Origin: a virus
Lineage: Duplodnaviria; Heunggongvirae; Uroviricota; Caudoviricetes
DNA length: 5,321 nt
IMG/VR virus record: IMGVR_UViG_2706794691_000017
Strand: one strand, 5' to 3'
Below, in pieces: positions 1 to 5,321 of the stretch (positions are counted from its first letter, which is position 1; each line of letters opens with the position of its first letter). The notes below the pieces were generated by a model. It saw nothing but the letters and a program-made list of their open reading frames with translations, did not search any database and was not told where the DNA came from. Position numbers and translations under genes: made by a program.

Positions 1-1083
1 ATGAAAAAATTAACAGTGGCAATTTCTGCTGTAGCTGCATCAGTACTGATGGCGATGTCTGCTCAGGCAGCTGAAATTTATAATAAAGACAGTAACAAGC
101 TGGATCTGTACGGGAAAGTTAATGCTAAGCACTACTTCTCCTCTAATGATGCAGATGATGGTGATACTACTTATGCCCGTCTTGGCTTCAAAGGTGAAAC
201 CCAAATCAACGATCAACTGACTGGTTTCGGTCAGTGGGAATATGAATTCAAAGGCAACCGCGCTGAATCTCAAGGTTCCTCCAAAGATAAAACCCGTCTT
301 GCCTTCGCTGGCCTGAAATTCGGTGACTACGGCTCCATCGATTACGGCCGTAACTACGGTGTAGCATACGACATCGGTGCGTGGACTGACGTCCTGCCAG
401 AATTCGGTGGTGACACTTGGACTCAAACAGATGTGTTCATGACTGGTCGCACCACTGGTGTTGCAACTTATCGTAACAACGACTTCTTTGGTCTGGTTGA
501 TGGTCTGAACTTTGCTGCTCAGTATCAGGGTAAAAATGACCGCACTGACGTAACTGAAGCTAATGGTGATGGTTTCGGTTTCTCCACTACTTATGAGTAT
601 GAAGGATTCGGTGTAGGTGCAACCTATGCTAAATCTGACCGCACTAATAATCAGGTTATCTACGGTAACAACAGCCTGAATGCATCTGGTCAAAATGCTG
701 AAGTATGGGCAGCTGGTCTGAAATATGATGCGAACAACATCTATCTGGCTACCACCTATTCTGAAACCCAGAACATGACTGTTTTTGGTAATAACCATAT
801 TGCCAACAAAGCACAAAACTTCGAAGTAGTTGCACAATATCAGTTCGACTTCGGTCTGCGTCCGTCCGTTGCTTACCTGCAATCTAAAGGAAAAGACTTG
901 GGTGCGTGGGGTGATCAGGACCTGGTTGAATATATTGATGTAGGTGCAACCTATTACTTCAACAAAAATATGTCCACTTTTGTTGATTACAAAATCAACC
1001 TGATTGATAAGAGCGATTTCACGAAAGCATCTGGCGTTGCTACCGATGATATCGTTGCTGTAGGTATGGTTTACCAGTTCTAA
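1..1083 (+). CDS. nmpC: Outer membrane general porin, NmpC/Lc/OmpD-like (OmpC/OmpF/PhoE family), apparently intact
   Basis: 360-aa ORF with a classic Sec signal peptide ([30 protein letters not shown]), porin-typical Gly/Tyr/Asp-rich beta-strand composition, and the C-terminal aromatic residue (..VYQF) needed for outer-membrane insertion. The protein matches my recollection of E. coli NmpC. Lies convergent to the phage Q gene, as in DLP12. Confidence 0.9.
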
Positions 1084-1099
1084 TTTGATTACTAAAAGA

Positions 1100-1133
1100 T
1101 ATGTTGCGGGAGGCTTTGCCTCCCCAACATATA
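1100..1133 (-). terminator. GC-rich imperfect hairpin with a U-tract on the minus-strand side; candidate terminator for minus-strand (Q/late) transcripts, possibly tR'-like
   Basis: Arms gttgcgggaggc (1103-1114) and gcctccccaac (1118-1128) with a ttt loop. On the minus strand the hairpin is followed by AUAUCUUUUAGU. On the plus strand it is not followed by a T-run. Confidence 0.4.
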
Positions 1134-1154
1134 AGTGGCTCCCTCAAGCCACTT
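1133..1154. repeat. Perfect 8-bp inverted repeat (aagtggct / agccactt) with 6-nt loop; stem-loop of unknown role
   Basis: Read directly: aagtggct ccctca agccactt. No clear U-tract on either side. Confidence 0.35.
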
Positions 1155-1220
1155 CCTTTAGGAGCACAACCTTGCTTCTAACTATATAAACCTTCTGTTA
1201 TATATTACCCTTTATTTTTG

Positions 1221-1254
1221 GGGGCGTTGCAACGCCCCATTTTTAATAATTTTT
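1221..1254 (+). terminator. Rho-independent terminator, plus-strand orientation (likely terminates nmpC transcript)
   Basis: Perfect palindrome ggggcgttgcaacgcccc (1221-1238) immediately followed by atttttaataattttt. On the minus strand the same hairpin is followed by an A-run, so it is unidirectional. Confidence 0.55.
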
Positions 1255-1271
1255 AGTAAACAATTGGCATA

Positions 1272-1655
1272 TTAATTAGAGTTATTAACAACGATATCCA
1301 TCTCTAACCGGATATCTAATGCCATTAACATCCCTTCAATTATGCCCTCAGCCTTCTGTAACCTTTTCCCGATATAACCATCAGAGCAGCAATGCTTACC
1401 TGCCAGTGACATGAATGTCATACCGACTACATAATAATCTACTAATAAATCGTGCAAATCGCTGTTGTTCTTTTTCAGACGGGCCATGCACCCGCAAATA
1501 ATCATCGCGTCATCGTCACAACATTGCGGGCGAGATTTTACTTTTGAAGTAATTAATCCCTTAAAACCGGCGGCAATGGACGACCAGGTCACATCTTCAT
1601 GATTATTAGCCGCCCACGCTCCCCAACGCTCAAGAACCATCTGAATATCACGCAT
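1272..1655 (-). CDS. quuD: Late-gene antiterminator Q, phage 82 / QuuD type
   Basis: Translation [26 protein letters not shown]...[16 protein letters not shown]...DIVVNNSN matches my recollection of DLP12 QuuD (127 aa), with Cys-rich putative zinc-binding motifs. ATG at 1655 is preceded by GGAG with 7-nt spacing. The ORF track's 1670 start is an upstream in-frame TTG, which I consider less likely. Confidence 0.85.
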
Positions 1656-1740
1656 CAACTTACTCCACAAAAATCAGACCAGAACGCCAATTACAAGCAA
1701 AAATCAACAAAACAGTATTAGTTGATTGTTATCTCTGACT

Positions 1741-1881
1741 TCATACTCCTGCTCCTGTCAGGGTTTTGGCGTAATTCTTCAGTATTCGGTAATCGGTCAA
1801 AACAGAACCGGGGAAACGATATAAGCGCAGATGCCCCCAGCGGTGGCGAAGAAGTTCTGCCATATAAAACTCAAACATCAT
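1741..1881 (-). CDS. ylcG: Small protein, ylcG-like (46 aa), overlapping the rusA stop
   Basis: Manual translation of the minus strand gives [46 protein letters not shown]. It sits in the rusA-to-Q position that ylcG occupies in DLP12. Below the length cutoff of the supplied ORF track. Start could alternatively be the ATG at 1878 or 1863. Confidence 0.5.
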
Positions 1882-2240
1882 TCATTCCCCATTTCGGTGA
1901 TGGTCAGTTCCAGCCTCCCACCTTTGGTAACAGGCATCTTCACAACGCGGTAATCAACGACCTGAGCATCATCCAGCCAGAAACCTGCTTTGGTGAGTGC
2001 GTCAAAAGCGGCTTTTTGCAGATTATCCAGGTCACGGCGACGGCGATCCGGCATGTGGCACTCAATACGGATTTTCACTGGCATAGCCAGGCCGATATCC
2101 AGCATTGCGTTTTTAATGATTCGGGTGACGTTATCGCGGTATGCCTGCCCTTCTGCGCTGATGTGTGTGCGCCCGCGATTATGGCGGTAATAGCGGTTAT
2201 TGCTCGGAGGCCAGGGTAATGTGATGCTGTAGGTATTCAC
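1878..2240 (-). CDS. rusA: Holliday-junction resolvase RusA (crossover junction endodeoxyribonuclease)
   Basis: 120-aa translation [38 protein letters not shown]...[11 protein letters not shown] matches my recollection of RusA. GTG start overlaps the ybcO stop (GTGA). Confidence 0.9.
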
Positions 2241-2527
2241 GCCTTAATAACCCCCTCTTTCAGCCAGATAACCTGCGTTCTCGCCATACCTTCCAGCGCG
2301 CATTCTTTTGCATACTCAGCATCGACAAAATATGTGCGGCGGTCGATTTCGTCGTGACAGGCAGAACATGCAATGGTGGCAATCAGGTCTGGCGGTTTGA
2401 TACCGGTACCGCACAATCCAGCCAGCCGGATATGTGCCAGTACTGACGTTTCAGGATTGCCATTACATACGCCAGGGATTCTTACCTGGCATTCCCGACC
2501 ACGCGCTGCTTTTCTCAAATCAGCCAT
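2237..2527 (-). CDS. ybcO: YbcO-family protein (DUF1364; Cys-rich putative nuclease/zinc-binding protein of the nin region)
   Basis: 96-aa product [42 protein letters not shown]...[11 protein letters not shown].., starting at the ATG at 2527 with a strong upstream SD (AAGGAGGA). The ORF-track start at 2566 is an upstream in-frame ATG lacking an SD. Start overlaps the ninE stop (ATGGCTGA). Confidence 0.8.
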
Positions 2528-2690
2528 GATTCCTCCTTGCTGCCAGTCGCAACCATTTTTTATCAACCAGGCTAGCGGTATATCCGAGCAGTGTTGGTAT
2601 TTCGGATGGCTTCAGCTCAGGCTTACGCTTACGACGATTTGATACTCTGTAGATGTGCCCGTTCATGACACGAATAAGCGGTGTAGCCAT
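2520..2690 (-). CDS. ninE: NinE-family protein (56 aa)
   Basis: Manual translation [59 protein letters not shown] overlaps the ybcN stop (TAATG) and the stop overlaps the ybcO start. Below the ORF-track length cutoff. Confidence 0.75.
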   Translation of the reverse strand: MATPLIRVMNGHIYRVSNRRKRKPELKPSEIPTLLGYTASLVDKKWLRLAARRNHG

Positions 2691-3145
2691 TACGCCTCCT
2701 GCTTATCGCGCAGCTGCTGGTATTCACAGCTCTGCGGAATTGTCAGGTGGCAGCCGATATTCATCGCCCAGGCTTCGACTTTGCACAGGAAGATGTACAT
2801 CTCGCCGGTTTCCAGCTCTGACGTATGGCGGAGGGATTGGACGGTGGTGACCTCGCCGGACACGACATCTACACGGTCTTTGCTTTCGTAGCCGAGATAG
2901 GTGTGCTTCATCGCGTCTTTGACCCACTCAGGCGTAGCGAAGGTCTTGCCGCGGGCGATGAGATATTCGCTGATCTCCGTGTACCACATGTGGCTGAGCG
3001 CGTTCTGCGACAGGCTGCGCTTCTCGCGCCACGGCTTAACCTGCAGGCGTAAGCATTGCCCGGCATCCAGCAATGGCTGAATCTGCTGGCCGATGGCCGC
3101 GAAGTTACCGCGATGGAGTTTGATGCCGTCTACTGGCAGAGTCAT
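2690..3145 (-). CDS. ybcN: YbcN-family prophage protein (nin-region; reported base-flipping DNA-binding protein in E. coli)
   Basis: 151-aa ORF MTLPVDGIKLHRGNFAAIGQQIQPLLDAGQCLRLQVKPWREKRSLSQNALSHMWYTEISEYL.. matches my recollection of DLP12 YbcN. SD GGGAGG upstream. ATG overlaps the stop of the upstream small ORF (ATGA). Confidence 0.85.
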   Translation of the reverse strand: MTLPVDGIKLHRGNFAAIGQQIQPLLDAGQCLRLQVKPWREKRSLSQNALSHMWYTEISEYLIARGKTFATPEWVKDAMKHTYLGYESKDRVDVVSGEVTTVQSLRHTSELETGEMYIFLCKVEAWAMNIGCHLTIPQSCEYQQLRDKQEA

Positions 3146-3237
3146 ACGGCCTCCCTAACGGAAACCGCAGAATGCAGAAAATCGCAGGTGCATTTCTGCA
3201 TCTGTGACAAGGTGATGAGTTCAGATTGTGGTCGCAT
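3142..3237 (-). CDS. ylcH: Small ORF (31 aa), ylcH-like, translationally coupled to ybcN
   Basis: Manual translation MRPQSELITLSQMQKCTCDFLHSAVSVREAV*. Preceded by an in-frame stop and an AGGGGA SD-like sequence. TGA overlaps the ybcN ATG. Identity as ylcH is from synteny and recollection only. Confidence 0.4.
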   Translation of the reverse strand: MRPQSELITLSQMQKCTCDFLHSAVSVREAV

Positions 3238-3365
3238 TTAAGTCCCCTTAAATGCGCAGAAGTCACCGGAGTTGTTCAGGCTCCGATGAGAGGATTATGG
3301 CGGATTGATTACGATAAATCAAAACTATCTTGAAGCCAAAACAGTGATCTTCGCTTTAAAAACCT

Positions 3366-3373
3366 TGTATACT
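3366..3373 (+). promoter_or_regulatory. Candidate extended -10 element (TG + TATACT) upstream of the AT-rich cassette; no convincing -35
   Basis: Sequence ttgTATACT lies about 37 nt upstream of the ATG at 3410. A TTGAAG at 3330-3335 is too far away (about 32 nt) to serve as its -35. Sequence-gazing only. Confidence 0.25.
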
Positions 3374-3409
3374 TTCACCTAATCACAGCCAGAACTATGG
3401 ATCTAACCA

Positions 3410-3787
3410 ATGACCAACAAAGAAAACAAAGATAAATATATTAACAAGTTCAAGAAAGAGCTTTCAAAATATATACAACCAACTGCTGGAGTGGACATTC
3501 AATTATTTAACTCTAAGGATGGTGGTGGTGTAATTAAAGCCACTTTGAATAGAAGTGGAAAAAGAAAATCATCTATTGCTGGTAATTTTACTAAATTAGG
3601 TGAGGCAATTACCTCGAGTGGGCAGAGGGTTTTTGGTGGTGATCTATCAAATGTGAATTTTTACGGAACAAATACGATTTTTGATGGAGATACAATATTT
3701 TTAATTAAATCACCTGATTCAGAGGAGTGGTCATCACAAAAAGCTTCCAAAGACGTAGAGGGCATCGTATTTGGAGGGAAAAAATGA
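3410..3787 (+). CDS. Hypothetical protein, 125 aa, hydrophilic, Gly/Lys/Ser-rich, no signal peptide or TM segment; unassigned family (cassette gene A)
   Basis: Long uninterrupted ORF in a strongly AT-rich context. Product MTNKENKDKYINKFKKELSKYIQ...GGDLSNVNFYGTNTIFDGDTIFLIKSPDSEEW...GIVFGGKK. Weak or absent SD. I do not recognise the family. Confidence 0.6.
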   Translation: MTNKENKDKYINKFKKELSKYIQPTAGVDIQLFNSKDGGGVIKATLNRSGKRKSSIAGNFTKLGEAITSSGQRVFGGDLSNVNFYGTNTIFDGDTIFLIKSPDSEEWSSQKASKDVEGIVFGGKK

Positions 3788-3869
3788 TTAACATTACTAC
3801 TAAGGATGCACTCAAGTCAGTGGTGAAGTAAGAGATCTAGTAATTCTTCTTGAAACTGATGGAAAAACG

Positions 3870-4211
3870 GTGTCTGATTATTTGCAGCCAATCCCTCCCA
3901 AAAAAGATACACACTGGAGCATGATTTTCATTCCGGTAGCAATTTATATACTACTTAATCTTGTATACATTATTGCTCACCCATTATTTCCTGAAAAATA
4001 TCTAAAAACATCAACATCTATATTTCTATTCATTTCCTTCATATTAAGTGCAATAGTAGCATATTTTGTTTTCCATAAGCATAAATCTGCCACTCTATCC
4101 ATATGCAGCTTAGTGTTCTTAGTGTTAATTGTAGGTGCTAACGTAGGGTTTATCAGTTACAGCGACCTAACACAAAAAGCGACGCAAAAATTAGATAGTT
4201 TGTCTAAATAA
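3870..4211 (+). CDS. Hypothetical small integral membrane protein, 113 aa, about 3 predicted TM helices; unassigned family (cassette gene B)
   Basis: GTG start at 3870 (an internal ATG at 3918 is an alternative). Hydrophobic stretches WSMIFIPVAIYILLNLVYIIA, TSIFLFISFILSAIVAYFVF and LSICSLVFLVLIVGANVGFI are separated by short charged loops (PEKYLK, HKHKSAT). AT-rich codon usage matches gene A. Confidence 0.6.
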   Translation: MSDYLQPIPPKKDTHWSMIFIPVAIYILLNLVYIIAHPLFPEKYLKTSTSIFLFISFILSAIVAYFVFHKHKSATLSICSLVFLVLIVGANVGFISYSDLTQKATQKLDSLSK

Positions 4212-4218
4212 TTATGTT

Positions 4219-4266
4219 GCCATGCGAAGTATGCATGGCTGCATGTCTGCCTTCCATTTAAAATGG
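4219..4266 (+). other. Inverted repeats downstream of cassette gene B (gccatgc..gcatggc stem; palindrome ccatttaaaatgg); possible weak terminator or site
   Basis: 7-bp stem at 4219-4225 / 4233-4239 with 7-nt loop, and a 13-bp palindrome at 4254-4266. No strong U-tract. Confidence 0.2.
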
Positions 4267-4318
4267 GCTAAGACCTATAACCCTAAATATTATTCTTTAT
4301 TATCTTCTTTACCACTTC

Positions 4319-4341
4319 GGTGATGCTGCCAACTTACTGAT
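4319..4341 (+). repeat. IS1 left terminal inverted repeat (IRL)
   Basis: GGTGATGCTGCCAACTTACTGAT, imperfect inverted match to 5064-5086. Confidence 0.85.
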
Positions 4342-4373
4342 TTAGTGTATGATGGTGTTTTTGAGGTGCTCCA

Positions 4374-4577
4374 GTGGCTTCTGTTTCTATCAGCTGTCCC
4401 TCCTGTTCAGCTACTGACGGGGTGGTGCGTAACGGCAAAAGCACTGCCGGACATCAGCGCTATCTCTGCTCTCACTGCCGTAAAACATGGCAACTGCAGT
4501 TCACTTACACCGCTTCTCAACCCGGTACGCACCAGAAAATCATTGATATTGTCAGCGCCAGTGATATAAGACGGTAA
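4374..4577 (+). CDS. insA: IS1 InsA, C-terminally truncated variant (66 aa; canonical InsA is 91 aa)
   Basis: GTG start. [58 protein letters not shown] matches the InsA zinc-finger N-terminus, then diverges (IVSASDIRR*) and stops at the TAA at 4575-4577, upstream of the slippery site. Confidence 0.7.
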
Positions 4578-4585
4578 TTCGCCAT

Positions 4586-5071
4586 TTGGATTGTCCGCTC
4601 CACCCAACAGATTTTACGTCACTTAAAAAACTCAGGCCGCAGTCGGTAACCTCGCGCATACAGCCGGGCAGTGACGTCATCGTCTGCGCGGAAATGGACG
4701 AACAGTGGGGCTATGTCGGGGCTAAATCGCGCCAGCGCTGGCTGTTTTACGCGTATGACAGTCTCCGGAAGACGGTTGTTGCGCACGTATTCGGTGAACG
4801 CACTATGGCGACGCTGGGGCGTCTTATGAGCCTGCTGTCACCCTTTGACGTGGTGATATGGATGACGGATGGCTGGCCGCTGTATGAATCCCGCCTGAAG
4901 GGAAAGCTGCACGTAATCAGCAAGCGATATACGCAGCGAATTGAGCGGCATAACCTGAATCTGAGGCAGCACCTGGCACGGCTGGGACGGAAGTCGCTGT
5001 CGTTCTCAAAATCGGTGGAGCTGCATGACAAAGTCATCGGGCATTATCTGAACATAAAACACTATCAATAA
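4586..5071 (+). CDS. insB: IS1 InsB reading frame (transposase catalytic part); N-terminus differs from canonical
   Basis: From ..[50 protein letters not shown]... to ..HYLNIKHYQ* matches InsB. The first 8 residues (MDCPLHPT) come from the divergent block. Confidence 0.75.
4623..4631 (+). promoter_or_regulatory. IS1 programmed -1 ribosomal frameshift motif (TTAAAAAAC) that normally produces the InsAB' transposase
   Basis: Motif read directly, in the conserved position relative to insB. The upstream insA frame is interrupted by a stop in this copy. Confidence 0.6.
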
Positions 5072-5086
5072 GTTGGAGTCATTACC
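5064..5086 (-). repeat. IS1 right terminal inverted repeat (IRR)
   Basis: Reverse complement GGTAATGACTCCAACTTATTGAT. Confidence 0.85.
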
Positions 5087-5321
5087 GTGCGATGGCATAT
5101 TTTATGTTGTCATTAATGATTTCAATAATATGTGGAAGGTGATGGAATTTCAGCAACAGATCTATTGCCTCTTGTTGCTCTGAATCATTTAAATCGAAAA
5201 ACCAGTCACCACCGCTGGCAAGCCACATATTTCCATCGCCAGTTTCGAATGCATCCAACGCCATCGCTTCGTGGTTGCCTTTAACCGACGTAAACCAGGG
5301 GTGGTTTAGCAGGCGCAGCAC
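5082..5321 (-). pseudogene. Lambda-type Ser/Thr protein phosphatase (metallophosphoesterase, NinI/PPase-like), 3'-truncated at the IS1 junction; 5' end beyond window
   Basis: Translation ..HPWFTSVKGNHEAMALDAFETGDGNMWLASGGDWFFDLNDSEQQEAIDLLLKFHHLPHIIEIINDNIKYAIA aligns with the lambda PPase region FPWFRAVRGNHEQMM...GGGWFFNLDYD...LPLIIELVSKDKKYVI, including the GNHE motif. The ORF then runs into the IS1 right end (junction 5086/5087), where a stop (5082-5084) occurs. The expected C-terminal third is absent. Confidence 0.75.

Follow-up and report, generated by a model that had tools for sequence, protein, structure and literature searches.

Results

Organization of the locus

The window (the whole 5,321-nucleotide stretch of DNA analysed here) is an exact substring, at offset 475, of the 68.5-kb draft contig CWUL01000003.1 of assembly GCA_001261395.1, one of six contigs found by exact-sequence look-up to share a truncated InsA of 67 amino acids. 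Positions 1-4549 are identical at 4549 of 4549 bases to locus L004 in CP022457.1, the chromosome of Shigella sonnei 2015C-3566 (PMC6456863). As recognized from its ORFs, Pfam matches and the annotation of identical loci, the segment 1-4318 belongs to a DLP12-like lambdoid prophage, with a porin gene (1-1083) and two small ORFs on the plus strand, and the Q antiterminator, rusA, ybcO, ninE and ybcN on the minus strand. The prophage is followed at 4319-5086 by an IS1-length element with IS1 ends at both sides. To its right, on the minus strand at 5082-5321, lies a 79-amino-acid ORF that is a 5' fragment of pphB (annotated as such in E. coli, and encoding serine/threonine phosphatase 2), cut by IS1.

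The prophage flank immediately before IS1, ending in TACCACTTC, is common to all relatives. In E. coli relatives the prophage goes on past the position equivalent to 4319 with the replication genes P and O; in S. sonnei the P/O part is lost and lacY comes next instead (pphB in the window), indicating an IS1-mediated deletion or rearrangement. Two smaller differences were seen within the prophage. A 113-amino-acid ORF at 3870-4211 is the counterpart of a 142-amino-acid hypothetical protein (L012, 6284-6712) of E. coli relatives; in S. sonnei the N-terminal part has apparently been lost, and several finished genomes have no gene call for this ORF. In one finished genome (L025, 5379-5879) the stretch from a 125-amino-acid prophage gene to IS1 is shorter by 31 bases than in L018 and L027, reflecting an indel.

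A 60-base block within IS1 is the left end of IS21

The element has the 768-bp length of IS1, and both of its terminal 23-mers, the left inverted repeat at 4319-4341 and the right at 5064-5086, match those of intact IS1 in L004 and L005. The element was compared base by base with the intact IS1 at L004 470-1237, in the closest finished relative. Outside IS1 bases 232-291 there are 0 mismatches, and this identity extends to other S. sonnei IS1 copies. Positions 4319-4549 are IS1 bases 1-231, including the start of insA, and positions 4610-5086 are IS1 bases 292-768, with the A6C frameshift motif TTAAAAAAC at 4623-4631 and the insB' catalytic part, all on the plus strand. Between them, at 4550-4609, 39 of 60 positions differ from IS1 bases 232-291 (21 of 60 identical, or 35%). 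The original prediction, made from the window by itself, had placed a foreign block of conserved length at exactly this position, and the comparison bears it out: the element is still 768 bp long.

When 101 bases with the block at their centre were used as query, thousands of E. coli records were matched through the IS1 flanks only; the block proper matched DNA about 100 bases ahead of istA genes that carry an IS21 annotation. It is identical at 60 of 60 positions to IS21 bases 1-60 in L004, L005 and L007, and at 58-59 of 60 to E. coli IS21 copies, in which istA begins some 100 bases downstream. Of 5,426 complete E. coli genomes, 2,406 have such an IS21 left end. Since the block matches an IS21 left terminus at every base, it is identified as the first 60 bases of IS21 and not as chance divergence of IS1. 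It begins with the left terminal inverted repeat (TGTCAG; TGTCAGCGCC) and ends in CCAACA, and TGTCCGCTCC recurs at block bases 42-51 as an internal direct repeat of the terminal motif. Its composition (A15 C17 G13 T15) is different from that of the IS1 segment it replaces (A12 C15 G20 T13) and from that of the segment's complement, which rules out an inverted, complemented, permuted or shuffled IS1 segment. A known IS1 isoform was also rejected as the source of the block, E. coli genomes and plasmids having no colinear match. BLAST extensions reached 6-18 bases to the left of the block and hinted at an IS21 target preference; on inspection these flanks proved unrelated.

A complete IS21, about 2.13 kb long, carries istA and istB and duplicates 4 bp of its target; in the IS21 family the duplication is sometimes 5 bp, and the terminal inverted repeats begin 5'-TG, end CA-3' and have repeated terminal motifs. 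The window keeps 60 of 2130 bases: the left end matches full copies, the right end is absent, the ORF list for the window contains neither istA nor istB (relatives have both genes at this junction), and of the ATAT target duplication there is only the left copy, relatives having both.

Finished relatives carry a complete IS21 nested in IS1

In CP022457.1 the order is IS1 bases 1-231, IS21, an ATAT duplication, IS1 bases 232-768 and lacY. The IS21 there is 2130 bp long with the 4-bp ATAT duplication on both sides, and encodes an IstA of 390 amino acids (NF033546, 285 bits) and an IstB of 266 amino acids (NF038214, 302 bits). The same nested structure is present in L005, L018, L025 and L027, and thus in at least four assemblies besides CP022457.1; the last three, which are chromosome-scale, were found by a second look-up with a prophage protein. 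The other contigs that encode the 67-residue InsA agree with the window in prophage, IS1 and GATAT|TGTCAG junction, but in them IS21 runs on. The left junction of the window, GATAT|TGTCAG, is a true IS21 transposition junction, as in the finished genomes. The window shares with the finished nest the prophage flank, the IS1, the insertion point and the 67-residue InsA. It differs in what follows: the finished genomes have the whole IS21, IS1 bases 232-768 with A at base 658, and lacY, whereas the window has 60 bases of IS21, IS1 bases 292-768 with G at base 658, and the pphB fragment. We conclude from these alignments that the real biological object at the locus is an IS1 split by a complete IS21.

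Two other IS21 insertions in IS1 were observed. In the E. coli plasmid pVTB432v-2 (NZ_CP178692.1; L001, 2001-2081) an independent insertion has the junction GATATG|TGTCAG, which is shifted rightward by one base from that in S. sonnei, and the occurrence of two insertions within 1 bp hints at a preferred IS21 target inside IS1. Another independent insertion, in NZ_CP026939.2 (L002, at about 2166), lies at about IS1 base 445.

Truncation of InsA and loss of the transposase

Intact IS1 encodes an InsA with a zinc ribbon and a C-terminal helix-turn-helix, and the replaced bases 232-291 cover the helix-turn-helix coding region. In the window the insA frame (4374-4577, plus strand) stops at a TAA at 4575-4577 after 58 native residues, which hold the zinc ribbon, and nine residues contributed by IS21; no complete InsA is encoded. 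NCBIfam matches to the IS1 transposase and its Zn domain are confined to residues 8-60 of this 67-residue product, in agreement with the proposed loss of the C-terminal DNA-binding part. An identical product is encoded at the IS1::IS21 junctions of L004, L005 and L007, which indicates that the truncated InsA is a genuine consequence of IS21 insertion into IS1.

The stop lies 46 bases upstream of the A6C motif, which is thereby uncoupled from insA, and the InsAB' fusion could not be made in the usual way, just as had been supposed. The insB' part itself is present (IS1 transposase NF033558, E=1.5e-36). Because 60 is a multiple of three, the same insA frame resumes after the block; its return had also been noticed in the original prediction. 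That prediction went on to call the copy either transposition-defective or a recombinant IS1 isoform. The former description fits, InsA being truncated and InsAB' uncoupled; the latter does not, the block being IS21 sequence, which the prediction had not recognized, and no second IS1 with the block plus both junctions having been found in the collections searched. By its reading frames this IS1 copy is dead whether the join is artefactual or real, with an InsA that lacks its DNA-binding end and an InsAB' that cannot be made.

The element combines two IS1 copies

The window jumps from IS21 base 60 to IS1 base 292, and three features show that its two parts do not naturally belong together. Position 4976, IS1 base 658, is G, as in other IS1 copies; the IS1 half that truly follows IS21, beside lacY, has A there in six of six relatives. 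The right flank of the window is the pphB fragment and then mutS, in place of the lacY flank found in all six relatives, and mutS adjoins the pphB fragment in L006 and in sister contigs, a chromosomal locus and not prophage DNA. Finished S. sonnei genomes have no protein call for the pphB fragment. Finally, the IS1 tail on the pphB side in the sister draft L009, whose last 125 bases span base 658, is identical to the window, G included. On this evidence IS1 bases 292-768 are attributed to the IS1 copy inserted in pphB, and the element is a composite, in which a 60-base stub of IS21 separates parts of two IS1 copies.

IS1 normally duplicates 8-9 bp of its target, and no such duplication flanks the element: the left flank is prophage, as given above, and the right flank, GTGCGATGG, is pphB, with no 9-bp repeat between 4310-4318 and 5087-5095. 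The IS1 of the finished relatives is likewise without a flanking target duplication.

Distribution of the junctions

Scans for the right junction, CCACCCAACA|GATTTTACGT, found no copy in complete E. coli genomes, in plasmids, in GTDB species representatives or in IMG/VR, and the finished S. sonnei chromosomes sampled do not have it either. Among the sequences searched it is confined to a single draft assembly, that of the source contig CWUL01000003.1, and thus does not recur as a natural isoform would. The original prediction had left it to be checked whether the block exists in any database IS1. No other IS1 with the block and both junctions was found among about 78,000 IS1 places in 5,426 complete E. 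coli genomes, nor in 72,556 plasmids, GTDB representatives, JGI metagenomes or IMG/VR. Two JGI metagenome matches to the right junction and one MAG match to the left junction were chance 20-mers and a chance 21-mer, respectively, with unrelated flanks.

In every one of at least 24 sister drafts, the contig with the pphB fragment ends 103-125 bases into IS1, the usual break at a repeat. The source contig amounts to such a 63-kb contig, plus one IS1-length element, plus the 5.3 kb of prophage bounded by two IS1 copies. That the IS1::IS21 locus troubles assemblers is demonstrably so in CP029794.1 (L024, 5911-6732), where the same locus has 124 bases of IS21, 100 N, and then IS1 from base 516. This record is labelled a chromosome, and it has an unresolved repeat here, the 100-N gap replacing most of IS21; it also contains a spurious 114-base tandem duplication in the 5' part of IS1. 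We note separately that in L010 (CWTQ01000007.1) and L011 (CWUD01000006.1), at about 1300-5700, the mutS ORF is in pieces, unlike in L006 and L009, and that in L010 the adjacent sigma-54 activator ORF is in pieces too; the split ORFs could be real pseudogenes, with a possible mutator phenotype, or assembly errors.

Discussion

How the 60-for-60 exchange arose

The explanation we prefer, with a probability of roughly 0.7 judged from the comparisons above, is that the exchange is a repeat-induced chimera of short-read assembly. IS21 inserted after base 231 of the IS1 at the prophage edge in S. sonnei, leaving that IS1 split; during assembly the 5' half of the split IS1 with IS21 bases 1-60 would then have been joined, coordinates preserved, to bases 292-768 of the IS1 in pphB, presumably as the assembler threaded or scaffolded its way across IS1 and IS21 repeats that had been collapsed. 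The 60-for-60 substitution would accordingly not be a physical DNA molecule, and the DNA of the isolate is expected to run from IS21 base 60 into TGTTGTTTCC, with a junction ...GGCGTTGACA-ATAT-GGCCATGAATGG linked to the IS1 half with A658 and to lacY. The window resembles repeat-induced chimeric joins and collapsed repeats in short-read drafts in several respects: the join lies wholly inside multi-copy IS elements, the coordinates of the repeat are kept, loci that are apart in finished relatives are linked, the join is unique to one draft, and the locus is where sister drafts break and where L024 has its N gap. We infer that the join is the work of software and not of the cell. The coincidence in length points this way, and a real deletion would need a second rearrangement to account for the pphB flank and the G658 allele. 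By our own estimate, which takes end points as uniform, a real deletion would retain as many IS21 bases as IS1 bases were lost about once in 2130, and a coordinate-preserving step gives the same length without coincidence.

Which step of assembly would have made the join is less easily specified, and three simple forms of it do not fit. A k-1 = 60 de Bruijn overhang is at odds with the left end of the contig itself, which has 85 bases of IS1. With k=61, a naive joining of de Bruijn nodes would, by our reasoning, give an element of 772 bp and not 768. GapFiller, as published, does not close a gap unless at least 10 bases overlap (PMC3446322), and there is no such overlap at the junction. It also counts against a chimera that many contigs end in IS1 and that the assembler needs a reason for taking the one with pphB; a true adjacency of prophage and pphB in the isolate would make that choice less puzzling. 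In one version of the chimera, IS1-by-IS1 recombination would indeed have placed an intact IS1 between prophage and pphB, and only the 60-base branch would have been mis-threaded.

The main competitor is that the contig is correct, and that an illegitimate deletion of 2134 bp in the nested IS21, removing IS21 bases 61-2130, the ATAT duplication and IS1 bases 232-291, was followed by recombination or conversion with the IS1 copy in pphB, an inversion or translocation bringing the pphB fragment and mutS to the right. The deposited sequence runs across the junction without an N, and a true adjacency of prophage and pphB would explain why the assembler linked the two contigs. IS1-by-IS1 rearrangements are common in Shigella, and the missing target duplication in the finished relatives is compatible with them. 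Finished genomes also hold remnants of IS21 left ends, 61-64 bases long in a plasmid and 92 bases long as solo copies in several chromosomes. Two independent events would nevertheless have had to combine with an exact 60 = 60 match in length (about 1/2000 by our estimate), and the junction is confined to a single draft, with none in the finished S. sonnei chromosomes sampled. Nor is there usable microhomology: the shared CAACA is one base out of register, and a microhomology-mediated deletion on it would give one C too many and an element of 769 bp, which is not observed. We consider a real deletion with IS1 recombination unlikely, with a probability of about one in five. Much less probable is a role for the IS21 transposase itself, in which IstA would have cut an internal pseudo-end ACA|TGT at IS21 bases 58-63 and joined the cut end to a nearby IS1 target, the rest of IS21 being deleted. 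IS21 ends are 5'-TGT...ACA-3', bases 57-64 read AACATGTT and so resemble abutted termini, and the plasmid remnant ends within 1-4 bases of base 60; other remnants end at base 92, however, giving no consistent hot spot, and the conserved length, the allele at base 658 and the pphB flank would all be left unexplained. We know of no such pseudo-end activity of IS21. The more general form of the idea, with a physical junction here and IstA cleavage at pseudo-ends leaving 60-base solo left ends, seems to us a shade more doubtful still. Least credible of all is a natural recombinant IS1 isoform with a substituted internal block: length and reading frame are conserved, which speaks for it, but the block is IS21 and not IS1-family sequence, and none of the collections searched holds another IS1 with the block and both junctions.

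The remnants deserve a brief description in their own right. In plasmid NZ_CP134806.1 (L003, 2010-2073) an IS21-like left end with two mismatches stops at bases 61-64 and directly adjoins an N-terminally truncated colicin-like gene. The solo 92-base left ends (H130-H134; for example NZ_CP019243.1, 3687812-3687903) are 98.9% identical and were seen in several E. coli chromosomes, in DNA without annotation. We also considered whether breaks recur at IS21 base 60 and set the idea aside: with L003 at 61-64, the others at 92 and most matches being full IS21 copies, there is too little to sustain it.

Implications

For users of the data, the public draft contig probably hides a chimeric join within repeats, leading from the prophage to pphB-mutS, and a length-conserving 'substitution' in a multi-copy element is best taken as a warning of misassembly before any reading as a new isoform. 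Were pseudo-end cleavage by IstA to prove true, 60-base stubs would be a recurrent scar of IS21 loss, the remnant in NZ_CP134806.1 being similar. For biology the consequences are small. IS1 and IS21 are both classical elements, and their nest is already known from finished S. sonnei genomes, where the IS21 genes are annotated; insertion of one IS into another is routine in Shigella, and the finding is an ordinary one of little biological weight.
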